Positions 9,209 to 57,287 of a DNA stretch of 64,000 nt are shown here, one piece after another. The notes under the pieces are model-generated. The model saw only the letters and a program-made list of their open reading frames with translations, was not told the DNA's origin and searched no databases. The DNA is from Escherichia coli. GTDB lineage: Bacteria > Pseudomonadota > Gammaproteobacteria > Enterobacterales > Enterobacteriaceae. The first letter of the stretch is position 1; the number at the start of each line of letters is the position of its first letter. Where the stretch lies: the NCBI RefSeq assembly GCF_009931435.1, contig NZ_CP043414.1. One strand, given 5' to 3'. The translations under genes and the position numbers were made by a program.

Positions 9209-11403
9209 AATTTGATAAACCCGCAGGGGAAAACCCGATCGATCAGCTGAAGGTTGTCGGTCGTCCCCATGACCGCATCGACGGACCGCTGAAAACTACC
9301 GGCACGGCACGCTACGCCTACGAATGGCATGAAGAAGCCCCCAACGCCGCCTATGGCTATATCGTCGGTTCCGCCATTGCCAAAGGACGCCTCACCGCCC
9401 TAGATACGGACGCCGCGCAAAAAGCGCCGGGCGTACTGGCTGTCATTACCGCCAGTAACGCTGGGGCACTCGGCAAAGGCGACAAAAACACCGCCAGGCT
9501 GTTAGGCGGCCCCACTATTGAGCACTATCATCAGGCCATTGCGCTGGTAGTGGCCGAGACCTTCGAACAGGCGCGAGCGGCGGCCTCGCTGGTGCAGGCG
9601 CACTATCGCCGTAATAAAGGAGCTTACTCCCTGGCGGACGAGAAACAGGCCGTCAGTCAGCCGCCGGAAGACACGCCCGATAAAAACGTTGGTGACTTTG
9701 ACGGGGCTTTCACCTCCGCTGCAGTGAAAATTGATGCTACATACACGACCCCGGACCAGAGCCATATGGCGATGGAGCCGCATGCCTCGATGGCCGTCTG
9801 GGATGGAAATAAGCTTACCCTCTGGACCTCAAATCAGATGATTGACTGGTGCCGCACCGATCTGGCAAAAACGCTGAAAGTGCCCGTGGAGAATGTGCGT
9901 ATTATCTCCCCGTATATCGGCGGAGGGTTTGGCGGCAAGCTATTCCTGAGAAGCGATGCGCTGCTGGCGGCCCTCGCCGCCCGTGCGGTGAAACGTCCGG
10001 TTAAAGTGATGCTCCCCCGCCCCACTATTCCCAATAACACCACGCACCGCCCCGCCACCCTTCAGCACCTGCGTATCGGTGCCGACCAGAGCGGGAAAAT
10101 CACCGCTATCTCACATGAAAGCTGGTCCGGAAACCTGCCCGGCGGCACGCCGGAAACGGCGGTACAGCAAAGCGAATTACTCTACGCAGGGGCAAACCGT
10201 CATACCGGCCTGCGGCTCGCCGCGCTTGATTTGCCGGAAGGGAACGCCATGCGTGCGCCCGGCGAAGCCCCCGGTCTGATGGCGCTCGAAATCGCGATCG
10301 ACGAACTGGCGGAAAAAGCGGGCATCGATCCCGTCGAGTTTCGCATCCTGAATGACACTCAGGTTGACCCCGCCGACCCGACGCGCCGCTTCTCTCGCCG
10401 TCAGCTTATCGAGTGCTTGCGCACCGGAGCGGATAAATTTGGCTGGAAGCAGCGCAACGCTACACCCGGACAGGTGCGCGACGGGGAGTGGCTAGTCGGC
10501 CACGGTGTTGCGGCGGGCTTTCGCAATAATCTGCTGGAAAAATCGGGTGCTCGGGTTCACCTCGAACAAAATGGCACCGTTACCGTAGAAACGGACATGA
10601 CCGACATTGGCACCGGCAGCTACACCATTCTGGCCCAGACGGCAGCGGAAATGCTTGGCGTACCGCTGGAGCAGGTTGCGGTTCACCTCGGCGATTCCAG
10701 TTTCCCGGTTTCTGCGGGTTCTGGTGGACAATGGGGCGCGAATACCTCCACCTCCGGCGTTTACGCCGCCTGTGTGAAACTTCGCGAAATGATTGCCTCG
10801 GCGGTCGGGTTTGATCCTGAGCAGTCGCAGTTTGCCGACGGCAAGATTACCAACGGTACCCGAAGCGCCACGCTACATGAGGCCACCGCAGGCGGCAGAC
10901 TGACAGCGGAAGAGAGCATTGAGTTCGGCACTCTCAGCAAGGAGTACCAGCAATCGACCTTTGCCGGGCATTTTGTGGAGGTCGGCGTGCATAGCGCGAC
11001 GGGAGAAGTTCGGGTCCGGCGTATGCTCGCCGTGTGCGCAGCGGGGCGCATTCTGAATCCGAAAACTGCACGCAGCCAGGTCATTGGCGCGATGACTATG
11101 GGCATGGGCGCGGCACTGATGGAGGAGCTGGCGGTAGATGACCGTTTGGGCTACTTCGTTAATCACGATATGGCGGGGTATGAGGTGCCGGTTCATGCGG
11201 ATATCCCAAAACAGGAGGTGATTTTCCTGGATGATACCGACCCCATCTCCTCCCCGATGAAGGCCAAAGGTGTCGGTGAGCTGGGCCTGTGCGGCGTGAG
11301 CGCGGCTATCGCCAACGCGGTGTATAACGCCACCGGTATTCGGGTACGGGATTATCCCATCACTCTGGATAAGCTGCTCGATAAACTGCCGGATGTGGTT
11401 TAA
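9205..11403 (+). CDS. paoC: PaoC, molybdopterin-binding catalytic subunit
   Basis: 732 aa; 4-nt overlap with paoB; xanthine dehydrogenase-family large subunit; recognised as YagR/PaoC. Confidence 0.9.
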
Positions 11404-42029: not shown

Positions 42030-43103
42030 TTACGAAAGCCCGCTCCCCGCAAGGACTGACGCCAGATACTTTCTGTCCATGGCTGCTTTTCGCATCTTAC
42101 GTCTTAACCCTGCCTTGAATACCTTATCATTCGTCAAAATATTAATTGCGATGTGCCGTATCCCTGAAAATAATTCTGCTGCATTTCCTCTTCTTATTTT
42201 GCAGTCGTCTTCATTCATTACCACGTCCAGACGCCAGTGCAGCTTATTCTCCACGTGCCAGTGGTTTCGGATTGCTGTGGCGAACTTCTCTGCGGTTAAA
42301 TCAGCAGAACTGATATAATATCTGACCGTCATTTCTGGCTCTTTCTTTTGTTCTGCTATTATTGACCGAAAGGAGACTGCCACGCATAATTTCTTCAGAC
42401 CTTTCCATTCAAACGTGAAATCAATAAGTTCATCAGGGACATCGCAAACAATGTGAAGACGGATTTCTTCTCTGCCGTGACTCTTTTCACTAATTGCGTA
42501 ACTGTCATGCTCTGGATTATTTAATTCTTTCAGCGGAAATTTTTCCTCGAAGCCTTTATTTAGCCGCCCCTGGTTTCCTTTTACAGCGAATAAATAATCA
42601 CCTCCCTGTTTTTGTATCTTCTCTGCAATATCTTTCTGGCAACCCATCGCATCAGTTGTGATGATTTTTCCTTTAATATCCAGCATGTTAAGAAGTTCTG
42701 GGATAGCTGTAATCTCATTGGATTTCTCATCCGTCTTGATCTGTCCGATGACCAGACTGTGCATTGTTGAGAACGCACTAATGACATGAATCGCTCCCCT
42801 GCGGCGACTCTTGTCATAAGAGTGCCGGAGCGTTTTTCCATCAATTGCAATGACGCCTTTATCATCTGAAGAATGGCAGTCACGCATCCAGTTAATAAAG
42901 CACTCGTGAAATTTTGCAGGACTGATACAGGATACAACTCTGGCAATGGTATCGTGAACAGGAATACCATTTTCAAAATCACCATATTGCTTCAAAAAAT
43001 CGAGATGTGTTTCCCCAAAATCCTCTATATCTTCCCAACCTTCTGCACCCGAAATAACGGCGCAAATAGTCAACAGTAGAATATCCGATAATTTATGTTC
43101 CAC
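42030..43103 (-). mobile_element. ISAs1-family (H-repeat-associated) transposase, intact ORF
   Basis: 357-aa ORF recognised as H-repeat/ISAs1 transposase ([39 protein letters not shown]...); lies next to the Rhs genes. Element ends (inverted repeats) not determined. Confidence 0.8.
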
Positions 43104-43546: not shown

Positions 43547-43939
43547 TCATTTCATTTTTTTAAAACATACGTTAATGCCATTCACACTTCCACATTCACC
43601 AAAAGCATCAAAATAAATTTCACATTTATTGTTGCCTTTCGAAATGATGCTAACCCCCCATCTTATATTGTTATATTTTTCTTTTCTGAAATACTTCATT
43701 TGCAATAAATCAATTATCTTACCCGCATAGAGATCGCTAAGTTCATTCACCACCACTTTATATCTGTATATTTCATTAAGACCTTCCTTGCTAAGCGGAA
43801 CTAACGTGGTAACATACGATGGAAGATTAACTACCTCTATCGTTTTCACGCTATCTATTCCACACAATTCATTCACTCGCCCCATCCCCAATACCGAACC
43901 AGAAAATAGAGACAATAAAACCATCAAATATTTCATCAT
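43547..43939 (-). CDS. Putative secreted immunity protein for the Rhs2 C-terminal toxin
   Basis: Track ORF starts at GTG 43951, overlapping the Rhs2 stop; ATG at 43939 has a GAGG SD. Sec signal peptide (MMKYLMVLLSLFSGSVLG), about 130 aa, AT-rich, immediately 3' of the Rhs2 toxin domain. No recognised family. Confidence 0.55.
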   Translation of the reverse strand: MMKYLMVLLSLFSGSVLGMGRVNELCGIDSVKTIEVVNLPSYVTTLVPLSKEGLNEIYRYKVVVNELSDLYAGKIIDLLQMKYFRKEKYNNIRWGVSIISKGNNKCEIYFDAFGECGSVNGINVCFKKMK

Positions 43940-43950
43940 AAAAAACCTCA

Positions 43951-46900
43951 CTATTCTGGCGTACCCGTTATTGTCATCGTCTGCAACGGTCCATCCACCC
44001 GATAAAAAGGCAGTCCACTATGAGCTCCTCTGACACACTCATCTAAAGTTTTCGCCGCACGCGATTCAATTATTGTAATAACCCTTGCCTCTTCTTTATT
44101 ATCATATTTCTTATCCGTCCGACTTAAAAGAGCCATGAAATTTTCTTTATCAAGAAGGTAATACTGTGCATGTGCAAACTCATGCCCCAAACCTAATGCA
44201 GGCGATTGTGATTTCGAGTTTAATTCAGTTGAACAAAATAAAGACGCTCTACTATTCCAATATATCGTCATATTATTCGAATTAAATCTACCATTGGTTC
44301 CTTCAATATACTCTATATTTATAGTTTCTTCAGAGCTTGATAAAAAATCTATAGCATCTTTCATTCGTGAATCTTTTTCTAAATACTTAACAGCCTGATT
44401 AAAATCACTTGGATCACCATTAACCTCGAATTTTAAACCCAAAGAATCTATAAACCGAACAGGGTTTAATGGATATTTATACAGATTCCATTCACCTCTT
44501 AGCCCGATTGGATCCTGCGTGATATACCTCCCCTGCAACGGGTCATAGTACCGGTGACGGTTGTAGTACAGCCCCGACTCCTCATCATACTGCTGCCCTG
44601 GCAGACGGTACGGCTGTTGCAGGTGCTCCGGGTTTTCCTCTCCCAGCAGGTTTCCCCACTCGTCATACTCCCCGCGCCACGCCGTTTCCCCTTCCGGGCT
44701 GATAAGCGCCTGCGGCAGCCCACGGTGGTCACAGTGGTAAAGATGAAGTTTCCTCTCCGGGATGTATTCTTCCTCCATCTGGTTGTTCATCTGTTCCGCC
44801 GTCAGCCCGCACTGCGCAAGCCATGCTTCACTCTCCGCACTCACCGCACCCGCGCGCAGTTCCCGCTCCAGCCTCCCCAGCATCACCGACAGCTCCGCCG
44901 GGAGCGTCACACCCGTGTCCTCCTGCAACACCTCCGCCAGGCTACGGTGCCGCGCCTTCGCCTGTTCGCCATTCTCTGTTTCGATTCTCAGGAGCGGCGT
45001 GAAGCTTCCCGGCTGATAAATCGTCTGGATACGTGTGGTGCCGGTCTGTACCGTCGTCAGCCTGTCACCGTCCCACCCGTACCATGTCTCCTCCGGTTTA
45101 CGCGACAGCGACATCCATCCCGTCAGGTCACGCTCCCGCCGCCACACCCGTTTTCCCGTCCTGCGGCCCAGCGGGTCGTAAAGGTAGCGGCTCTCCACCT
45201 GCGGCTCGCCGTGCTGTATCCGCGTGTAGAACACCAGACGGTGCTGGCTGTCGTAATGGTAGTGGTGGGTGCGCTCGTCGTGCATCCGTATCACCCCTTC
45301 CGGGATACGGTCCGTCTTCTCCGCCAGCCTGCCGTATTCATCGTGGCGGTAGACATAGTGCGCATCTTCCGCGATGCGGTTATCCGGCCACGCCGTGAAG
45401 GTGCTGTCCGGGTGCAGTTCCGGGTCCGGCAGCCGGTTTCCTGCCGGGTCCGTCGCATACGGGATATCAATGTCCAGGTTCGCTGCCGTGGTGTGGACGC
45501 CCGTCAGCCTTCCCGTGTCGCTGTAACGGTACTCCCGGCTCTCCTGCGGGCCGCTGATACGCACCAGTTGCCCGTTATCATTCCACGTATACTCACGGTC
45601 AAGCTGCGGAAGGTTCAGGTGCCTGCTCCGGAGCTGGCCTGTGAGGGTGTATGTGCTGGTCAGTTCATATGCGGCATTACTGCCTGCCATGCTGCCGAAG
45701 CTGCGCACCGTCTCACGGTGCAGCCTGTCCCGCGTGTACTCGACCAGCGGCGTTCCGCCCAGCTTCATCCCCGCAAGATAACCGCTGCCATACGTCAGCC
45801 ACTCCACCGGCGGCAGACCGTCCGGCTCCTGACGGGTCGCCAGCCCCTGTTCGCTGTACGCGTGCCCCGTCTCATGCTCCCACAGCATCTCCCCCGTCTC
45901 CGGGTTCTCCACCGTCTGCCGTTCGCCCGTCAGGCGGCCCTTATCGTCATAGCCGTAGTGGACCGCCACACGGTGGCCTTCACTGGTATGGCTGAGGGTG
46001 GTTAACCACCCGTGCTCATCATACTGCCACTGCTCTGCCGCTTCGCCGTTCACCGTCCGGTGCGTGATGCGGTCCGACGCATCGTAGTGCCAGAGGGTGA
46101 TAAGTCCCTCGTCTTCACTGCGGACAAGCTGCCCTGTGGCGCTGTACCGGTAACGCTGTGTCCGTCCGTCAAAGCCGCGCTGCTCCGTCAGGCGGTCCAC
46201 CGGGTCATACAGGAACGTGGACTGGCTGCCGTTCTCATTAGTCAGCGTGGTGATGCGCCCGGCGGCGTCATACCCCATGCTGCGCGTCAGACCGCCCTGC
46301 GTGGTGCTGATAGCTTTACCCCACGCATCATACTGTGTCTCACTGCGGCTGCCGTTCGGGGCAATGATAGCGGTGAGGTCGCCTGCGGCGCTGTACTCAT
46401 AACGGGTTTCACGCCCCTGCACATCCTTCTGACTGACCAGTTGACCACGCGGGTTATAACTGCTGTAAGTGCTGATGCCTTCTTCCCGGTGAACCGCCGT
46501 CCTCTGCCCGTACCGGTCGTACTCATACCGTGTCGTGTACCCCGAGCAGTCCGTGAAGGCCAGCAGTTGACCGTAGCGGCTCCATGCCATCTGTTTTGTA
46601 CTGCCCGTCGCATCCTGTATCCCTGTCGGCAGCTCACTCGCCGGGTCATCATAGCTGTACCGCGTCGTCTCACCGCTGCGCGAGGTCTCCGCCGCCAGCC
46701 TTCCCTTCTCATCATACTCCCGGCTGCTGCGAAGCCCGTCCGGGTACGTCACTGACGTCACCTGCCGCTGGCTGTTGTAGCCATACCGCACCGTCCTGCC
46801 GTCCGGCCCCGTCACCGCCGTCACCGCGCCCGACGCCATATGCAGGCTGTACTCCGTCCGCCGCCCCGCCGCATCCGTCTGCGCCTTCAGCCTCCCCGCC

Positions 46901-48207
46901 GCATCATACTCGCTGCGGGTGATGCTCCCGTCCGCATGCTCCTTCTTCACCACCCGCTTCAGGCCACCCTCGCCTTCCGTGTACAGCACCTCCCGCCTGT
47001 TCAGGCTGTCCGTGATGGTCACACGGTCCTGCCCGTACTCAAAGCGGTAGGCCAGCCCCTCCGGGTTGACCTGCTCCGTCACCCGACCGGTATCATCATA
47101 CCGGTAGCGGCTCTCCGGCCTCCCCGCATAATGGTGCGCCACCATCCGCCCGGCGTGCTCCGCATCATAAGTAAACCCGCGCACCTGCGTCCCGCTGCGG
47201 TCATACACCGCCAGCAACTCACCGCTGGCCGTGTACGTGTAGCGCGCCAGCGGCGCAGTCGGCTGTTCATCCGGGTATGCCGGGTCGTGTGTCAGCCACA
47301 CCGCCTCCAGCCGGATACCGTTATCGGCACCGTATTCTGTACCGGCGGGCAGCGTGTCGGGGAAAACCTGAGAAGAGGAAACAGAACGGGGACCGGCAGG
47401 GGAAGATAAAGACGTGGCGCGCTGTTTACGGCAGGCTTCCGCCCGCTGCGCCTGCGTGCTCAGCAACAGGTGAAAACGACGGCCCGCACCGTCCGTCCCC
47501 CCCGTCACCGCGCCCGCCACGTCACCCTCCGCTGCCCGGTGAAAGGCCAGCGTCCGACCAAAGCCATCCACCACGCCCGTCAGCACCCGGTATGCGGGCG
47601 GTTCCGGCGGCAGCACCTCGTCCGCCCCCGGCACCCGCTCCGGCCAGCTGAGTATCCACCACGGCCCCTGAAGGCTGTTTGTCGCCAGGTACACATGCGG
47701 ACTCAGGCGAACATCTTCCGGCAGCACCTGCCAGAGCGCGCTTAGCGGCTGCGAACTGTGCTGCTCCGCCCCCCCGCCCCGCGCCAGCCAGAACGACTCG
47801 CTGCGGCTGTAGCTTATCTCGCCGGGAAACAGCGGCTCAAAGTGAATGCTCCTGCCGCCGTTGTCGTTGAGTATCAGTTCCCGCTCATGAACCTGTAAGC
47901 GGATATCGAAGGGCGCTTTCCAGCCGGGGCCGAACACGCCCACCGGCGCGGGCGTCCTGGTCCGGTAACTGCTGTAAGCGCGGGAAAGAATAAACGGCAG
48001 CGGGCCGGGCAGTGCCAGGTCCGTCTCGCCCGGCAGCACCTTCGCACCCAGCACCGGGTTCACCGGGTTAGCATAGGTAATCCCTCCCGGACACACCGAG
48101 CAGGCCACTCCCGTCGGCGCACCTATCAGCACCCCTGCTGAACCCTGCACAATATCCAGTCCCTTGCGGGTCATGTCGCCCTGCCGCGCCGCCGGTTTTC
48201 CGCTCAT
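43951..48207 (-). CDS. PAAR-Rhs polymorphic toxin (Rhs2), HExxH-containing C-terminal domain
   Basis: 1418 aa; N-terminus carries a literal PAAR motif ([13 protein letters not shown]...GSAGVLIG); long YD-repeat core; core ends [27 protein letters not shown]; last about 160 aa unique, with HEFAH. Confidence 0.9.
44497..47450. repeat. Rhs core direct repeat, copy A (paired with 50623-53580)
   Basis: Track shows identical 483-aa antisense ORFs at 44554-46005 and 50680-52131, so at least 1.45 kb is nucleotide-identical between the two Rhs genes; flanking core highly similar with scattered substitutions. Outer boundaries approximate. Confidence 0.8.
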
Positions 48208-48330: not shown

Positions 48331-49323
48331 TCATTGTTTGTTATCAGAAAGTGTTTTATACAGCGGCACATATCCCACGTCTTCCACAAGACTTTGCCCC
48401 TGAGGGCTTAAAAACCAGTCCACTAGTTTTTGTGTTTCCGGTGTCGGCTTTTCGCGGGTGACCATGTAGGCATCCACCACATACGGATAAGTACCGTTGC
48501 GGATATTCTCCACCGTTGGTGCAATACCATTTATTGCCAGCAGCTTAAGATTTGGGCTTATATCCTTATTCATCTGTGTGACATAATAGCGGAAGGTGTA
48601 ACCAATTGAAGGCTGCGTATTCCGGTAGGCAATTACTTTGGTTAACACTCCATTCATAAGGCTTACTTCTGTAGATGTTCTGGCGGGTAGCATCGGTGTC
48701 TCTTTCATCACCTTTGCCAGCATCACCGTCTGGCTACCGGAATCTTCCGGACGCTGCCAGACCTGAATGCGCTCATCACTGCCACCAACCTGACTCCAGC
48801 GGGTGATTTTACCGCTGAAGATATCCCGAACCTGCTGTTCAGTAAAAGAACTGACCGGATTACTGGCGTTAACGATAAAAACAAAGGCTTCGTGGGCGAA
48901 GGGGGTATAAACCAGTTTCACCCCGGCATCGGCAGCCCGTTGTTTTTGTCCTGCGGAAGGCTGGGCAACAAAAATAACATCGGCCTGGCGCTTTATGAGA
49001 TCATTATAGGCTTCTGGTGTACGAGTCGGATACATATAATTCAAACCCGGATCTTGATGGTTATCCCCGGGGATCAAATATCGGTAAGCTGAAGCATACA
49101 GTGGATATAACGCGGTTGCACCACATACCCGGGGCCATTTATTCGAGTTATCAGTGTAGCGTAAAGTGGGTTCTCCTCGTATATTGGTTTTCTCCCAACT
49201 CACTGTTTCTTTTACGCTGTTATCGCCCCCGCCGTCTACACATCCTGACATTAATACCGTCATATAAAATAATACTGGTAACAGGCCCACCCTACGCATA
49301 CAATGATTTAATAAATACGCCAT
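48331..49323 (-). CDS. PstS-like (phosphate-binding-protein fold) putative lipoprotein, orphan
   Basis: Track ORF 48331-49365; start placed at ATG 49323 (GAGG SD 5-6 nt upstream) giving MAYLLNHCMRRVGLLPVLFYMTVLMSGC with lipobox-like LMSGC; PstS-like motifs (VIFVAQPSAGQ..., FTEQQVRDIFSGKITRWSQVGGSDERIQVW); no ABC transporter genes nearby. Confidence 0.55.
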   Translation of the reverse strand: MAYLLNHCMRRVGLLPVLFYMTVLMSGCVDGGGDNSVKETVSWEKTNIRGEPTLRYTDNSNKWPRVCGATALYPLYASAYRYLIPGDNHQDPGLNYMYPTRTPEAYNDLIKRQADVIFVAQPSAGQKQRAADAGVKLVYTPFAHEAFVFIVNASNPVSSFTEQQVRDIFSGKITRWSQVGGSDERIQVWQRPEDSGSQTVMLAKVMKETPMLPARTSTEVSLMNGVLTKVIAYRNTQPSIGYTFRYYVTQMNKDISPNLKLLAINGIAPTVENIRNGTYPYVVDAYMVTREKPTPETQKLVDWFLSPQGQSLVEDVGYVPLYKTLSDNKQ

Positions 49324-49627
49324 ATACCTCACTCTAAAATATTGATTATATAAATACATATGCATAATTATATTTACATCAAATTCTGAATGAACAATTT
49401 AAATTTAGAGAAAGTGAAATTTAATTTTTCGATACTTCCGCATACATATTCCCCTCGCTAAAAAATCATCATTCCACAATCAATCATTAATTACAACTCA
49501 ATATACATCATTTAACTTTCATTAAACTCGCAATTTATTATTACATTGTAGCCATTATGAACTGTCATCACGCACACACTCTACATACACATTAGAAACA
49601 ATATAACCCCATGAGCCATCCTCCGTT

Positions 49628-50074
49628 TCAATACTTAGTGCAGCGTGTCTTAAGGAAATTAGAAGCCACAACATCAATCTTTTCTTTTAAGACTAAATCA
49701 TCCACATAATCACAAGACAAATAGAAGTCATTACCATCGGCCATTATAAATATCCTCATAGGTAAAGATTTATCATTATCAACATGAGCATTCGTAATAA
49801 TCCAATAATAAGGAAATCTAACATTTTTTGTAGGAATACCCAATAAATCATAAGCTTTATTATTATATTCTATCGCTCCCTTAACAAACGTTGGTTTGAC
49901 CTCCTTACCAATAATGCGATGCGACGTATATTCTTCCTTCTCAGCAAACGATTGCATTAATGCCCATATAGGTTTATTTGCCAGCTCACCGTGATGAAAA
50001 ATCCGATAAAAATACACTCCTAAAAAAAATATTAAGCCTAAGCAAACCAATACCATGAGGCAGTTCTTACTCAT
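49628..50074 (-). CDS. Putative membrane-anchored immunity protein for the Rhs1 C-terminal toxin
   Basis: 148 aa; ATGA start/stop overlap with Rhs1; single N-terminal TM helix ([19 protein letters not shown]); AT-rich. No recognised family. Confidence 0.55.
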
Positions 50075-53000
50075 TGATTAAAATCCGTAAAATTAGAAGG
50101 AACAGGGCCATTCTCAGGTGAAAACAATGGAGATGTATTTGATACTCGTGATGCTATCATTTCTACAGTAGCAGGAAGATACATTGGCATTCCATTATCA
50201 CCACCTAGCGGATCAGTTGAAGTTAAAATTTCATTTATTGAATCTACTGAGACTCCCGCATGCAACATTGCCTCAATAACCATTGTTGCACAATTGTGCG
50301 TAAAATAGTTATAGTCACTTCTATCTACTTTATATTTTTCATCAATGTACTTAATCATTGCTTTCTCTTGTTCTGGCGTGGTTTTAATTGTATATATCCT
50401 CGTGCTTCTACGTTGTGCTTGTTCAGTTAAATAAGCTATGACACTCCCTCCACGTGGGGTAGCGGTTCCATAGCTATATACCCCTTTTCCAGTAAATGCC
50501 ATCGCAGAATGCCCTAATGGATTACCACTCGTGGGTCCCCCAGCAAAAATAAGGGTATCCAAACCAAGTGGATCTATATTTATAGTTGGATTCCACGGAT
50601 ATTTATAAAGATTCCATCCCCCCGCAAGCCCGATTGGATCCTGCGTGATATACCTCCCCTGCAACGGGTCATAGTACCGGTGACGGTTGTAGTACAGCCC
50701 CGACTCCTCATCATACTGCTGCCCTGGCAGACGGTACGGCTGTTGCAGGTGCTCCGGGTTTTCCTCTCCCAGCAGGTTTCCCCACTCGTCATACTCCCCG
50801 CGCCACGCCGTTTCCCCTTCCGGGCTGATAAGCGCCTGCGGCAGCCCACGGTGGTCACAGTGGTAAAGATGAAGTTTCCTCTCCGGGATGTATTCTTCCT
50901 CCATCTGGTTGTTCATCTGTTCCGCCGTCAGCCCGCACTGCGCAAGCCATGCTTCACTCTCCGCACTCACCGCACCCGCGCGCAGTTCCCGCTCCAGCCT
51001 CCCCAGCATCACCGACAGCTCCGCCGGGAGCGTCACACCCGTGTCCTCCTGCAACACCTCCGCCAGGCTACGGTGCCGCGCCTTCGCCTGTTCGCCATTC
51101 TCTGTTTCGATTCTCAGGAGCGGCGTGAAGCTTCCCGGCTGATAAATCGTCTGGATACGTGTGGTGCCGGTCTGTACCGTCGTCAGCCTGTCACCGTCCC
51201 ACCCGTACCATGTCTCCTCCGGTTTACGCGACAGCGACATCCATCCCGTCAGGTCACGCTCCCGCCGCCACACCCGTTTTCCCGTCCTGCGGCCCAGCGG
51301 GTCGTAAAGGTAGCGGCTCTCCACCTGCGGCTCGCCGTGCTGTATCCGCGTGTAGAACACCAGACGGTGCTGGCTGTCGTAATGGTAGTGGTGGGTGCGC
51401 TCGTCGTGCATCCGTATCACCCCTTCCGGGATACGGTCCGTCTTCTCCGCCAGCCTGCCGTATTCATCGTGGCGGTAGACATAGTGCGCATCTTCCGCGA
51501 TGCGGTTATCCGGCCACGCCGTGAAGGTGCTGTCCGGGTGCAGTTCCGGGTCCGGCAGCCGGTTTCCTGCCGGGTCCGTCGCATACGGGATATCAATGTC
51601 CAGGTTCGCTGCCGTGGTGTGGACGCCCGTCAGCCTTCCCGTGTCGCTGTAACGGTACTCCCGGCTCTCCTGCGGGCCGCTGATACGCACCAGTTGCCCG
51701 TTATCATTCCACGTATACTCACGGTCAAGCTGCGGAAGGTTCAGGTGCCTGCTCCGGAGCTGGCCTGTGAGGGTGTATGTGCTGGTCAGTTCATATGCGG
51801 CATTACTGCCTGCCATGCTGCCGAAGCTGCGCACCGTCTCACGGTGCAGCCTGTCCCGCGTGTACTCGACCAGCGGCGTTCCGCCCAGCTTCATCCCCGC
51901 AAGATAACCGCTGCCATACGTCAGCCACTCCACCGGCGGCAGACCGTCCGGCTCCTGACGGGTCGCCAGCCCCTGTTCGCTGTACGCGTGCCCCGTCTCA
52001 TGCTCCCACAGCATCTCCCCCGTCTCCGGGTTCTCCACCGTCTGCCGTTCGCCCGTCAGGCGGCCCTTATCGTCATAGCCGTAGTGGACCGCCACACGGT
52101 GGCCTTCACTGGTATGGCTGAGGGTGGTTAACCACCCGTGCTCATCATACTGCCACTGCTCTGCCGCTTCGCCGTTCACCGTCCGGTGCGTGATGCGGTC
52201 CGACGTATCGTAGTGCCAGAGGGTGATAAGCCCCTCGTCTTCACTGCGGACAAGCTGCCCTGCGGCGCTGTACCGGTAACGCTGTGTCCTGCCATCAAAG
52301 CCGCGCTGCTCCGTCAGGCGGTCCAGCACATCATAGGTAAACTCACTCCGGCTGCCGTTCTCGTTGGTCAGCACGGTGATGCGCCCGGCGGCGTCATACC
52401 CCATGCTGCGCGTCAGCCCGCCCTGCGTGGTGCTGACGGCCTTTCCCCACGCATCATACTGTGTCTCACTGCGGCTGCCGTCCGGGGCAATGATAGCGGT
52501 GAGGTCGCCTGCGGCGCTGTACTCATAACGGGTTTCACGCCCCTGCACATCCTTCTGACTGACCAGTTGACCACGCGGGTTATAACTGCTGTAAGTGCTG
52601 ATGCCTTCTTCCCGGTGAACCGCCGTCCTCTGCCCGTACCGGTCGTACTCATACCGTGTCGTGTACCCCGAGCAGTCCGTGAAGGCCAGCAGTTGACCGT
52701 AGCGGCTCCATGCCATCTGTTTTGTACTGCCCGTCGCATCCTGTATCCCTGTCGGCAGCTCACTCGCCGGGTCATCATAGCTGTACCGCGTCGTCTCACC
52801 GCTGCGTGAGGTCTCCGCCGCCAGCCTTCCCTTCTCGTCATACTCCCGGCTGCTGCGCAGCCCGTCCGGGTACGTCACTGACGTCACCTGCCGCTGGCTG
52901 TTGTAGCCATACCGCACCGTCCTGCCGTCCGGCCCCGTCACCGCCGTCACCGCGCCCGACGCCATATGTATCCGGTACTCCGTCCGCCGTCCCGCCGCAT

Positions 53001-54342
53001 CCGTCTGCGCCTTCAGCCTCCCCGCCTCATCATACCCGCTGCGGGTGATGCTCCCGTCCGCATGCTCCTTCTTCACCACACGCTTCAGGCCACCCTCGCC
53101 CTCCGTGTACAGCACCTCCCGCCTGTTCAGGCTGTCCGTGATGGTCACACGGTCCTGCCCGTACTCAAAGCGGTAGTCCAGTCCCTCCGGGTTGACCTGC
53201 TCCGTCACCCGCCCGGTATCATCATACCGGTAGCGGCTCTCCGGCCTCCCCGCATAATGGTGCGCCACCATCCGCCCGGCGTGCTCCGCATCATAAGTAA
53301 ACCCGCGCACCTGCGTCCCGCTGCGGTCATACACCGCCAGCAACTCACCGCTGGCCGTGTACGTGTAGCGCGCCAGCGGCGCAGTCGGCTGTTCATCCGG
53401 GTATGCCGGGTCGTGTGTCAGCCACACCGCCTCCAGACGGATACCGTTATCGGCACCGTATTCTGTACCGGCGGGCAGCGTGTCGGGGAAAACCTGAGAA
53501 GAGGAAACAGAACGGGGACCGGCAGGGGAAGATAAAGACGTGGCGCGCTGTTTACGGAAGGCTTCCGCCCGCTGCGCCTGCGTGCTCAGCAACAGGTGAA
53601 AACGACGGCCCGCACCGTCCGTCACCCCCGTCACCGCGCCCGCCACGTCACCCTCTGCCACCCGGTGGAAAGTCATCGTCCGACCAAAGCCATCCACCAC
53701 GCCCGTCAGTACCCGGTATGCGGGTGGCTCCGGCGGCAGCACCTCGTCCACTTCCGGCACCCGCTCCGGCCAGCCGAGCACCAGCCACTGCCCGGTTGTG
53801 CTGACAGCCATCATATAGGTGTGTGGACTCAGGCGGACCGCTTCCGGCAGCGCCCGCCAGAACCGCGCAAGCGGGTGTCCTTTATGCTGTTTCAGCACCC
53901 CGCCCCGCGCCAGCCAGAACGACTCGCTGCGGCTGTAGCTTATCTCGCCGGGAAACAGGGGTTCAAAGTGGATGCTCCGGCCACCGCTGTCGTTAAGTAT
54001 CAGTTCACGCTCACAAATCTGTAAGCGGATGTCGGAGGGGGCTTTCCAGCCGGGGCCGAATATCCCCACCGGGGCTGGCGTCTTCGTCCGGTAACTGCTG
54101 TAGGCGCGGAAAAGGATGAACGGCAACGGGCCGGATAGTGCCAGGTCGGTTTCAGCAGGCAGTACCTTCGCTCCCAGCAGCGGGTTTACCGGATTGCCAT
54201 ATTTCGGCGTGGCTTCCCCTGTGGGACACACCGAGCAGGCAACCCCCGTCGGCGCACCTATCAGCACCCCTGCTGAACCCTGCACAATATCCAGTCCCTT
54301 GCGGGTCATGTCACCCTGCCGCGCCGCCGGTTTTCCGCCCAT
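50071..54342 (-). CDS. PAAR-Rhs polymorphic toxin (Rhs1), His/Cys-containing C-terminal domain
   Basis: 1423 aa; PAAR motif at N-terminus ([13 protein letters not shown]...); YD-repeat core; core ends [27 protein letters not shown]; last about 162 aa unique (…[11 protein letters not shown]…[11 protein letters not shown]…); GAAGGA SD; 75 nt downstream of vgrG. Confidence 0.9.
50623..53580. repeat. Rhs core direct repeat, copy B (paired with 44497-47450)
   Basis: See copy A; same orientation, about 6.1 kb apart. Confidence 0.8.
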
Positions 54343-54417: not shown

Positions 54418-56559
54418 TCAAAATTGCCGCATATCCGGCATTCCGGGGGGTAAATCTTTCGGCACAGGCGCATCCGGCACAGGTTGTGTGGCACCACAGT
54501 TCCAGTTAATCACCGGCGCATCACCGTTCACATCCGACTCCCCTTCCAGATGAATGTGCGTACCATTAAGAAATATGCTTCCGTCCTTCGTCAGCACCAG
54601 CCTTGCCTTACCACAGCAGAGTTCAAGATGCTCACCGGCAGAATAAACTGCTGTTTGTCCGGTGTTTTCCTTCATCGTCTTGCCCACCGAGAAGGTGACG
54701 TTATTCCCTACATTGACGCTGTAGCCCATTCCCACCATCAGTGATTTATGCAGCCCTACCTGTGAGGACTGCAACAACGCCACCGAGGTATTCATAATGC
54801 CGCCTACCGTCGTCTGGTAAGCCACGCCCACCGTCAGCGCACGAATGATCCCCACCTTTTCAACCTGGTTTGATCCCACTTTGATAATCTGGTTACTGCC
54901 CACCGTTTCCACCTGGTTGACACCAACCGTCTGTATCTGATTAACGCCAATGTTCTGGATCTGGTTATTGGTAACGGTGATCGCCTGGTTGTTACCTATT
55001 TTTTCGGCATGGTTGTTTATCACATCAGTGGTGCGGTTATTCAGCACCTCGGTGTTCATGTTCTTCTGCGCGTGGATGTAGACCTGTTCTTTCCCTGTCG
55101 CATCGTCAAACTTCAGTTCATTAAACCCGCTGCCCTTATAGGTTTTCGAACGAATGGTCATCTGCGTCTTTGTTCCCGGCAGGCTGCCGGGGGTGCGGTT
55201 TTCCTGGTGGTAGGTACGCCCCATAATAATCGGCTGGTCCGGATCGCCGTTGAGGAAGTCCACAATGACCTCCTGACCCACACGCGGTATCGCCAGGTTA
55301 CCAAACCCGGTGCCTGCCCACGCCTGTGCCACACGGATCCAGCATGAACTGTCCTGGTTTGACGGGTTATAACGGTCCCAGTTAAATTTCACCCGCACGC
55401 GGCCATGTTCATCACAGAAGATTTCTTCTCCTGCCGGTCCCGTCACGACGGCGCTCTGCGGGCCATCCACCAGCGGTTTCAGCAACGGCTGTGGCCGCCA
55501 TGTTCTGTCTGCCGGTATTACCGCAAAGTGGTTATTCAGCGTGGTACCTGAACCCCTGCGTCCCGGCACCGCCTGCGGCTGCTCGCCGTGCAGTTCACTT
55601 GCCACCACCTGCCATTCCCGGTTCAGGTTCGCCTGCGGATGCCCCGTCAGCGCAATTCGCCGTCCCGGCCATATCTCCGGAGAACGGCTTGTTCCGCGCG
55701 CCACTTCTGCGTTGTTTCGCCAGCCATCCATCTGCCAGCGGGCAAAGTTCTGCCCGTGGGCACCCTTGAAACGTCCGGGGTAGTCATACACTTCATACTG
55801 TGTGCGCTGGTAATCCTGGTACTGGCCTTCCTGATCAAAACGCCCTGCCCAGCCGGGTCGTTTAAAGGTGTAGTCCTTGGTCACCACGGAAGAAGGGCGG
55901 ATTTGTGCGCTGTAGCGGAACTGGCTGATGCATAGGGTGCTCACCTCGGTACGGGTGTTCGGATTCCAGGGGATCTCAAAGGACTCCGGCAGATAACGCA
56001 CGGTGTCGCACAGGACCAGGCTCTGGTCGGTACTTTTTTGCGCGTGCTCCTCATAAAAGAAGATGCCTTCCTCCGCCGCCATCCGGCACAGGAAATCGTA
56101 ATCGGTTTCGCCGTACTGGACACAAAACTCACGGGAAGGATGCGGCTCGCTGAACAGCGGACTCCACTCGGTCACCCCGTTTTCTTTCAGGATCGTCGCG
56201 AGTATGCTTTCGATGTCCTCATTCTGGAAGATACGGAAGTTCTGGCGCAGCCCTGTGCGCCACAGCGGTGGGCATACCTTCATGCTGTACAGCATCTGGT
56301 TTTTGTCGTTCTCCCCCAGTTCAAACCAGGTCACCACACCTTTCACCCGGCGCTGTACGTCATCGCCCTGCCATATCGTCAGGTAGGCCATTTTGTCCAG
56401 CACCTGCGCAAATTCAAGGGAGAGAAACTGCTGGCTGACCAGAGAGAGATCGAGGGAAAAGAGCGAAGAGAGTGACTGGTTCAGATGAAAGGAGACCACC
56501 GCAAACGCGTCCGGTGGCAGGCCGTCCACTTCCAGCGTGAAACGTAATCCGGTTGACAT
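54418..56559 (-). CDS. vgrG: VgrG (TssI) spike protein
   Basis: 713 aa; gp27/gp5-like region and C-terminal beta-helix repeats (VGVNQVETVGSNQIIKVGSNQVEKVG); no large C-terminal effector extension. Confidence 0.9.
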   Translation of the reverse strand: MSTGLRFTLEVDGLPPDAFAVVSFHLNQSLSSLFSLDLSLVSQQFLSLEFAQVLDKMAYLTIWQGDDVQRRVKGVVTWFELGENDKNQMLYSMKVCPPLWRTGLRQNFRIFQNEDIESILATILKENGVTEWSPLFSEPHPSREFCVQYGETDYDFLCRMAAEEGIFFYEEHAQKSTDQSLVLCDTVRYLPESFEIPWNPNTRTEVSTLCISQFRYSAQIRPSSVVTKDYTFKRPGWAGRFDQEGQYQDYQRTQYEVYDYPGRFKGAHGQNFARWQMDGWRNNAEVARGTSRSPEIWPGRRIALTGHPQANLNREWQVVASELHGEQPQAVPGRRGSGTTLNNHFAVIPADRTWRPQPLLKPLVDGPQSAVVTGPAGEEIFCDEHGRVRVKFNWDRYNPSNQDSSCWIRVAQAWAGTGFGNLAIPRVGQEVIVDFLNGDPDQPIIMGRTYHQENRTPGSLPGTKTQMTIRSKTYKGSGFNELKFDDATGKEQVYIHAQKNMNTEVLNNRTTDVINNHAEKIGNNQAITVTNNQIQNIGVNQIQTVGVNQVETVGSNQIIKVGSNQVEKVGIIRALTVGVAYQTTVGGIMNTSVALLQSSQVGLHKSLMVGMGYSVNVGNNVTFSVGKTMKENTGQTAVYSAGEHLELCCGKARLVLTKDGSIFLNGTHIHLEGESDVNGDAPVINWNCGATQPVPDAPVPKDLPPGMPDMRQF

Positions 56560-56768: not shown

Positions 56769-57287
56769 TTATGCTTCCAGCGGTGCGCGCCAGTCGTCGG
56801 CACCGGAGGTGCCAGATTTGACGTGTTCCCACTCAATCTTGCGGTAGGCCAGTGAAACTTCGAGCAACTGGGTGAACTCGCGTTTCGCCGGGTCCTGGCA
56901 ATGCGGCATATGCAGTTTCATATCGACAATCGTCGAATCAGTCAGGCGGGTGGTGAAATAATGCTCCTGTTTGCCTTCCACAGATGTACGCCACCAGTGC
57001 AGTTCAGTGGTTGGCAGCATTTCACCGGAGGCCAGTGCGTTGTACATCAGCGGAACCGCTTTGTTCAGCGCCACGGTAAAAATGAACGGCTTGTGAGCAC
57101 GCTGACCCGCAGGCTGACCGGACTGAGGATCGGTCGGGACAGTAACGTTATGCAGGAATTCCTGCACCAGCATCTCGTCTTCGTGCCCCTGCACATAGAT
57201 GTTGCCGACAGAATCAGCGGTAAATGCACCTGCAGTAATATTTCCCTGGGTCTGACCAGTGATGGAGATATAACACGGTGTTGGCAT
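56769..57287 (-). CDS. hcp: Hcp (TssD) tube protein
   Basis: 172 aa, Hcp1-family sequence (MPTPCYISITGQTQGNITAGAFTADSVGNIYVQGHEDEMLVQEF...); directly upstream of vgrG. Confidence 0.85.
   Translation of the reverse strand: MPTPCYISITGQTQGNITAGAFTADSVGNIYVQGHEDEMLVQEFLHNVTVPTDPQSGQPAGQRAHKPFIFTVALNKAVPLMYNALASGEMLPTTELHWWRTSVEGKQEHYFTTRLTDSTIVDMKLHMPHCQDPAKREFTQLLEVSLAYRKIEWEHVKSGTSGADDWRAPLEA

Follow-up and report, generated by a model that had tools for sequence, protein, structure and literature searches.

What does a small C-terminal Rhs domain do when it sets a histidine before a cysteine and is followed at once by the gene of a membrane-anchored protein? This question is raised by a locus of Escherichia coli (contig NZ_CP043414.1 of assembly GCF_009931435.1), of which a stretch of 64,000 nucleotides, here called the window, was analysed. 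Its type VI secretion system (T6SS) region carries two Rhs genes, Rhs1 and Rhs2, and it is the variable tip of Rhs1, together with the gene directly downstream, that is mainly considered here. Modelling and conservation show this tip as a predicted compact, circularly permuted papain-like (NlpC/P60-superfamily) Cys/His enzyme. It belongs to the branch that also holds the periplasmic DUF4105 domain of Bacteroides Lnb, TseH of Vibrio cholerae and Tox-Act1 of Salmonella. In the explanation considered best, to which we give somewhat more credence than doubt, the tip would be delivered by the Rhs protein, its Cys90 would attack the acyl chains of envelope lipids in the periplasm, and a membrane-anchored immunity protein would confer protection. 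The following features carry the argument, with residues of the tip counted from its own first residue.

50074..50559, minus strand: C-terminal toxin domain (tip) of Rhs1, 162 residues (Rhs1 residues 1262-1423), DUF4105/Lnb_N-like Cys/His domain
50509..50511, minus strand: codon of His17 (Rhs1 His1278), predicted catalytic base, first residue of strand 17-22
50290..50292, minus strand: codon of Cys90 (Rhs1 Cys1351), predicted nucleophile, first residue of helix 90-100
50473..50475, minus strand: codon of Ser29, candidate third active-site residue, in the strand beside His17
49628..50074, minus strand: predicted cognate immunity gene, 148 residues, overlapping the Rhs1 stop as ATGA
50006..50062, minus strand: N-terminal membrane helix or signal anchor of the immunity protein (residues 5-23), by hydrophobicity

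The limits of the tip are set by the Rhs core. RHS_core (NCBIfam NF041261) spans residues 1-1261/1261 of Rhs1 end to end with 2549 bits, and therefore the variable tip comprises residues 1262-1423; TIGR03696 matches residues 1184-1261. Global alignment with Rhs2 (43951..48207) gave 94% identity in the core and 16% in the tip, with divergence starting directly past DPLGL/DSLGL. Guanine and cytosine make up 0.633 of the core, but 0.391 of the tip and 0.333 of the downstream 148-residue gene. The tip is not a chance open reading frame, because the exact protein is deposited in NCBI (QHQ00991.1 / WP_161524876.1, named 'RHS element core protein') and hundreds of tip homologues exist. NCBI names fragments in the 90% cluster of Rhs1 'DUF4105 domain-containing protein' and calls the product of the downstream gene 'hypothetical'.

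The sole significant sequence-family match of the tip was Pfam Lnb_N (PF13387, formerly DUF4105), at E 3e-7 to 4e-7 and over only model positions 92-151/175. Below threshold lay PPPDE (Peptidase_C97), aligned over residues 17-91, and TseH, at E 0.05-0.065. NCBIfam and PADLOC gave no match for the tip, and searches of PDB sequences, either with the single sequence or with a 51-sequence profile, found no relative, so that only fold comparison worked. The AlphaFold2 model built from the family alignment reached a predicted local distance difference test (pLDDT) of 95.9 and a predicted template modelling score (pTM) of 0.91, and in it His17 and Cys90 open the strand and the helix given above. When this model was compared with the PDB by Foldseek, TseH ranked first and the best matches were all permuted members. 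Against AFDB50, the top matches were Rhs tips and proteins named 'DUF4105 / Lnb N-terminal periplasmic domain'; Salmonella salamae proteins with 43-44% identity to the tip were included, and full-length Lnb-like membrane proteins followed lower in the list (E about 1e-5 to 3e-6). The tip itself has no membrane-like segment, its maximum Kyte-Doolittle value over 19 residues being 1.27. Four AFDB entries (A0AAD2GF05, A0A377E3W9, A0A7B3IIY1 and A0A8S7B1G1) are E. coli Rhs proteins, namely RhsD, RhsE core and RHS fragments. They end in domains of the tip fold at 23-26% identity, and E. coli thus has several diverged versions.

Conservation was counted in a 51-sequence alignment of the tip family. 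N13, G16, S29, R51 and C90 are invariant (51/51) and H17 is kept in 50/51, while the TTPxQ[ED] motif and the C-terminal P..L..FNP motif are near-invariant. Cys90, in THNCATMV, is the sole cysteine of the tip and lies 73 residues after His17. Both predicted catalytic residues are conserved in the order His before Cys that characterizes the permuted NlpC/P60 (papain-like) superfamily. The third active-site residue could be either of two candidates. Ser29, at +12 from His17, is invariant and sits in hairpin 17-22/26-28 of the model; position 34, at +17, is variable and polar, mostly Thr. The extreme C-terminus is likewise constrained in the family: within the last 10 residues (about 50074..50103), P154, L/F157, F160 and N161 are conserved and the sequence usually ends in FNP, an unusual constraint for the terminus of a polymorphic toxin.

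These results agree well with the sequence-only reading of the locus, which had described the last approximately 162 codons as distinct from Rhs2 and rich in adenine and thymine. The His motif followed by a Cys motif about 70 residues on is found at His17 and Cys90, and the proposed permuted papain-like Cys/His class is upheld by the Lnb_N match and the conservation of both residues. Structure prediction and fold comparison, which had been named as the check, returned a confident model resembling TseH and DUF4105/Lnb_N proteins.

How large the family is became visible by an exhaustive profile search of 1.84 billion representative proteins, which was needed since a word-index search gave only 4 tip relatives. 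It yielded 482 clusters at E<=1e-3, of which 321 also pass E<=1e-10. Among the 152 best matches, the domain is C-terminal in 108 and DPxG[LWF] is present in 100. Named members include RHS proteins of Stenotrophomonas, Solimonas, Betaproteobacteria and others. Within the species, megablast and sensitive blastn with the DNA of tip and immunity gene against 5,426 complete RefSeq E. coli genomes found the Rhs core alone or nothing. The tip-immunity module is either infrequent in E. coli or missing from this genome set, which does not include NZ_CP057959.1, the record of the published Rhs protein QMP79959.1 considered below.

The partner gene speaks to the compartment. Its ATG overlaps the TGA of Rhs1 as ATGA (50071..50074, 'caATGAgt'), an arrangement of translational coupling. 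Helix 5-23 has a mean Kyte-Doolittle value of 2.53 and the next best segment 0.55, leaving one strong segment only. The full-length homologues carry an equivalent N-terminal segment (mean 1.7-2.8), and the Citrobacter homologue P0190, which is called from an internal start, keeps part of it. Pfam, NCBIfam and PADLOC gave no match for the immunity protein, whose homologues form 12 clusters. In nine aligned homologues, the post-helix HHGELANKP and the pair Cys121/Cys145 are conserved; none of the nine enterobacterial-type homologues checked lacks the Cys pair, which the homologue of the metagenomic locus L007 shares and that of the Stenotrophomonas locus L004 does not. The AlphaFold model of the immunity protein (pLDDT 70, pTM 0.54) was judged too weak for a fold search. 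As a lipoprotein, the window immunity protein was ruled out on inspection, there being no lipobox before Cys11.

Partners at related loci were compared as well. P0190 adjoins a toxin tip of 65% identity. The gene after the toxin in L007 is an immunity homologue (hhalign 97.9%) and that in L004 a probable one (hhalign 73%, E 3e-5), both with an N-terminal membrane helix, and the partner at L001 is a lipoprotein with a clear LAGC lipobox. Counting the window and L005 as well, 5/5 of the downstream partners examined begin with either a membrane helix or a lipoprotein(-like) signal, and therefore these five are predicted to be tethered outside the cytoplasm. The single N-terminal helix and the ATGA coupling of the 148-residue gene had been noted from the sequence at the outset, and a membrane-proximal target, suggested at the same time, is consistent with these five partners. 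Two of the loci deserve a word of their own. In Citrobacter L002 (CP186530.1, 2452..8417), an IS3-family insertion (rve/HTH_Tnp_1) splits the Rhs gene just before the tip, leaving a 236-residue DUF4105-like tip open reading frame and P0190. In L005 (Solimonas sp. K1W22B-7), the tip stands on a 2489-residue teneurin/NHL-type RHS protein, and the partner (10480..10950) has ankyrin repeats and a lipoprotein-like signal (…FSFWGC); here the same toxin fold is paired with another type of immunity protein.

From these data a mechanism can be proposed. Judged by its architecture, Rhs1 would ride on the VgrG spike of the E. coli T6SS. Self-cleavage of the cage and release of the tip are established for other Rhs proteins, and by analogy the Rhs1 cage would cleave itself after ...DPLGL and free the 162-residue tip. 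In the periplasm of the target cell, Cys90 would attack ester-linked fatty-acyl chains of envelope lipids to form an acyl-thioester. Its hydrolysis, as the relatives suggest, would amount to phospholipase A activity and generate membrane-damaging lysophospholipids; less likely, the acyl chain would be handed to another acceptor. The co-translated 148-residue protein would be anchored in the inner membrane by its one N-terminal helix, and its domain of about 125 residues with the largely conserved Cys pair would face the periplasm and block the toxin in sibling cells.

Three precedents bear on the chemistry. Tox-Act1 is toxic only in the periplasm, requires both His and Cys, and cleaves phosphatidylglycerol and phosphatidylethanolamine to lysolipids (PMC12994826). 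TseH shows phospholipase activity in liposomes (PMC12994826). Lnb (BT_4364), a Bacteroides lipoprotein N-acyltransferase with a periplasmic DUF4105 domain in which Cys148 is essential, uses its Cys to N-acylate lipoproteins (PMC11573676). Given these precedents, formation of an acyl-thioester by Cys90 on the acyl chains of envelope phospholipids is most likely, and the membrane or lipoprotein tethering of all five partners points to periplasmic action. Three observations suggest that the immunity domain faces the periplasm: partners at other loci are lipoproteins or carry a similar signal, the protein has the Cys pair, and the homologous Lnb domain is itself periplasmic (PMC11573676).

Several points weigh against this explanation. 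The Lnb_N match is partial, and 9/51 family members pass E 1e-3 and 18/51 pass 0.1. The assignment of activity to the tip sub-family rests on characterised relatives outside it, and the fold alone leaves the substrate unfixed: PPPDE proteins are isopeptidases, YiiX is uncharacterised and the in vivo target of TseH is debated. No kinship with Tox-Act1 shows in the sequence either. Tox-Act1 (P0193) and its immunity protein Imm-Act1 (from locus L008) were recovered via the primer sequences of PMC12994826, and the tip matched Tox-Act1 at BLASTP E 28 and at an hhalign probability of 1.3%, the latter with a weak profile of at most three near-identical Tox-Act1 sequences. The hhalign alignment placed Cys90 on Tox-Act1 Cys151 in a local 22-column match around the Cys only. 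Tox-Act1 has no Pfam match, whereas the tip matches Lnb_N, and the immunity family is unrelated to Imm-Act1 (hhalign probability 0.08%). As to compartment, the cytoplasm is the more frequent place of action of Rhs tips (PMC12994826), and with one K/R before the immunity helix and two after it, the positive-inside rule is ambiguous on topology. Finally, the close homologue P0001 has Tyr at the predicted catalytic His17 (GNPLGYSAMAF). This metagenomic protein, 65% identical to the tip, keeps the rest including Cys90; its Tyr may mark an inactive protein or come from a sequencing error.

Among the other explanations, the one that survives best, unlikely though we consider it, keeps the same fold and compartment and makes the tip primarily an acyltransferase, which would move phospholipid acyl chains to an envelope acceptor. 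Lipoprotein N-termini (as for Lnb), the head groups of phosphatidylglycerol and phosphatidylethanolamine, or lysines could be acceptors, and toxicity could arise from mis-acylation or from a lysolipid by-product. It draws on the fact that the tip's only significant family match is the domain of the Lnb N-acyltransferase, in which Cys148 is essential (PMC11573676), and acyltransfer is left possible for the clade by PMC12994826. Nevertheless, Lnb has five membrane helices after its domain and the tip has none, the characterised toxins of the group, Tox-Act1 and TseH, showed phospholipase activity and not transfer (PMC12994826), and the acceptor is not inferable from sequence.

A more specific form of this idea is quite unlikely in our estimate. 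The compact Rhs tips of approximately 150-165 residues with the pattern 'NPFGH...YSYGT...R...TTPEQE...[DH][NT]C[AS]...FNP' would form a distinct unmodelled family, nearer Lnb than Tox-Act1, that kills by acyl transfer, for instance by aberrant N-acylation or other mis-acylation of envelope lipoproteins or lipid head groups, and is countered by a new single-helix, periplasm-facing immunity family. If true, bacterial warfare would gain in these tips its first 'toxic lipoprotein/lipid acyltransferases'.

It is improbable that the tip resembles the canonical NlpC/P60 T6SS effectors (Tse1/Tae family) in being a peptidoglycan amidase or endopeptidase, which would sever wall peptides in the periplasm and so lyse the cell. 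Periplasm-facing immunity candidates would suit the cell wall as well as lipid. The His-before-Cys order, however, denotes the permuted topology shared by all best fold matches, and permuted members form a lipid-specific hydrophobic pocket (PMC12994826). Moreover, cells intoxicated by Tox-Act1 lyse and leave sacculus-like rod-shaped remnants (PMC12994826).

Very doubtful, too, is a cytoplasmic tip with a protein substrate, acting as a PPPDE-like isopeptidase or thioesterase or as a RID-like protein acyltransferase, in which case the immunity helix would tether a cytoplasm-facing domain. The usual cytoplasmic action of Rhs tips (PMC12994826) and the ambiguous charge flanks of the immunity helix would fit such a scheme. 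Against it, the LAGC lipobox of the L001 partner and the lipoprotein-like signal at L005 place immunity outside the cytoplasm, the largely conserved Cys pair in the soluble immunity domain suggests a disulfide and hence an oxidising compartment, and Lnb_N, the nearest sequence family, is a periplasmic domain (PMC11573676). A serine lipase acting through a GHSAM 'nucleophilic elbow', which the sequence-only reading had already set aside, recommends itself only by the local resemblance of GHSAM to GxSxG/GHSxG and has a negligible chance of being right: position 18 is V in 21, A in 10, T in 8 and S in 7 of the 51 sequences, so that Ser18 is not conserved and the proposal is effectively refuted, no conserved GxSxG elbow exists, the fold is papain-like and not that of an alpha/beta-hydrolase, and no lipase family was matched.

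Delivery by the T6SS is suggested by the surroundings of the tip, which hold the following features.

50071..54342, minus strand: Rhs1 open reading frame, 1423 residues, from the map of open reading frames
50560..54342, minus strand: N-terminal PAAR-motif region and RHS/YD-repeat core of Rhs1 (residues 1-1261), ending DPIGL...DPLGL, by NF041261
50071..50073, minus strand: stop codon of Rhs1
54418..56559, minus strand: vgrG/tssI, T6SS spike (NCBIfam TIGR03361, E 3e-189)
56769..57287, minus strand: hcp/tssD, T6SS tube protein, upstream of vgrG-Rhs1 (NCBIfam TIGR03344, E 1.7e-61)

The end of vgrG and the start of Rhs1 are separated by 75 nucleotides, hcp adjoins vgrG, and a literal PAAR motif is present in the N-terminus of Rhs1. 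The window tssC/E/F/G genes are 99.4% identical to those of many complete E. coli genomes and mark the cluster as an E. coli T6SS. The features of an Rhs polymorphic toxin are seen, namely a full core, a DPxGL-type junction, a variable tip, linkage to vgrG and hcp, and a small downstream gene. Such an architecture suggests that Rhs1 is carried as a PAAR-Rhs effector by the neighbouring VgrG.

Other observations concern the neighbourhood. The cores of Rhs1 and Rhs2 (50600..54342 and 44500..48207) are 100% identical in protein over residues ~800-1200 and form a long direct repeat, which could mediate deletion or the swapping of tips between both genes. The tip of Rhs2 (about 157 residues; Rhs2 is on the minus strand) contains a HEFAH (HExxH) motif and weakly matches Pfam Peptidase_M91 (E 9e-4). 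It is followed by a 134-residue gene (43547..43951, minus strand) with a signal-peptide-like N-terminus, MRFFMMKYLMVLLSLFSGSVLG, and the two look like a second toxin of the cluster with an immunity protein that is apparently exported. Between the Rhs modules lies a 344-residue open reading frame (48331..49365, minus strand) that resembles PstS-family phosphate-binding proteins (TIGR02136, E 4e-37, below the curated cut-off) and begins like a lipoprotein (…VLMSGC). Directly downstream of the Rhs2 module, a 357-residue open reading frame (42030..43103, minus strand) resembles, judged from its translation alone, an H-repeat/ISAs1-type transposase. Transposases of this type often accompany Rhs elements.

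How the tip stands among known systems can now be considered. YiiX / YaeF-like proteins (PDB 2if6, 3kw0) and LRAT/PLAAT share with it the order His before Cys. They differ in having 11-15% identity and no PDB sequence match, and in being housekeeping or eukaryotic enzymes and not secreted toxins. In PLAAT/LRAT, the third residue follows His by +12 (PLAAT3 His23/His35/Cys113), the same spacing as His17/Ser29 in the Rhs1 tip, whereas +17 is the spacing of the TseH/Lnb type.

Lnb and the tip are alike in their permuted Cys/His fold, Lnb-like proteins being recovered by Foldseek, and the Lnb domain acts on the periplasmic side and on acyl-lipid substrates. Lnb is, however, a 398-residue housekeeping enzyme with its five membrane helices C-terminal (PMC11573676), whereas the tip is a soluble toxin of 162 residues without any. 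His and Cys are 99 residues apart in Lnb and 73 in the tip, and the proposed third residue of Lnb, Asn66, is at +17 from His, where the tip family mostly has Thr, its invariant Ser29 being at +12. With no hydrophobic segment and a terminal place on an Rhs protein, the tip lacks the architecture of a lipoprotein N-acyltransferase of the Lnb kind. TseH (VCA0285, PDB 6v98) resembles the tip in being a T6SS effector whose Cys/His core is permuted; it is a stand-alone protein of 15% identity with the triad Glu81-His64-Cys172.

The remaining comparison is with the Tox-Act1 / Imm-Act1 pair of the T6SS on Salmonella pathogenicity island 6 (SPI-6) (PMC12994826; preprint 2024, PLoS Biology 2026). The paper presents Tox-Act1 as the first NlpC/P60 toxin that targets lipids, in the sister clade of DUF4105, and reports Imm-Act1 to be membrane-bound (PMC12994826). 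Both Tox-Act1 and the Rhs1 tip are T6SS antibacterial toxins, predicted as such for the tip, with a permuted NlpC/P60 core and His before Cys, and in both loci a membrane-protein immunity gene lies directly downstream. Tox-Act1, in contrast, is a stand-alone protein of 279 residues with His43 and Cys151 108 apart, compared with 162 residues and 73 in the tip, and Imm-Act1 has 86 residues and two membrane helices, compared with 148 residues, one helix and a domain of about 125 residues in the window immunity protein. Both by sequence and by immunity type, the tip would thus fall outside the Tox-Act1 family (STox_15).

The toxin class, and with it an E. coli example combining RHS and DUF4105, is already published (2024-2026): QMP79959.1, a protein of 1422 residues with DUF6531, RHS repeats, RHS and DUF4105, was listed as a homologue in a conflict-system context (PMC12994826). 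In the text of that paper it is a 'Tox-Act1 homolog' and an example of the Tox-Act1 clade; in the supplement it stands on sheet S3D 'DUF4105b (Firmicutes)' and not on the Tox-Act1 sheet. Therefore, the published clade assignment of Rhs tips is ambiguous. Among the names tried, tip-family members showed no overlap with the S3 tables of PMC12994826.

The finding on the Rhs1 tip alters no general picture. Its interest lies in the recency of the class, since characterised permuted NlpC/P60 toxins directed at lipids date back no further than 2024-2026, when Tox-Act1 was described and TseH re-interpreted, and in its running counter, if the proposed compartment is right, to the common expectation of a cytoplasmic target for Rhs tips. 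With this locus, E. coli provides a clean and intact example of a widespread second sub-family (482 clusters), which is smaller in domain size than Tox-Act1, Rhs-borne, nearest in sequence to Lnb and provided with its own immunity family. Judged by its sequence, the tip belongs to this separate compact Rhs-borne sub-family, which Pfam models marginally, and has its superfamily in common with Tox-Act1 and TseH, and it is most likely that it works as these two toxins do.

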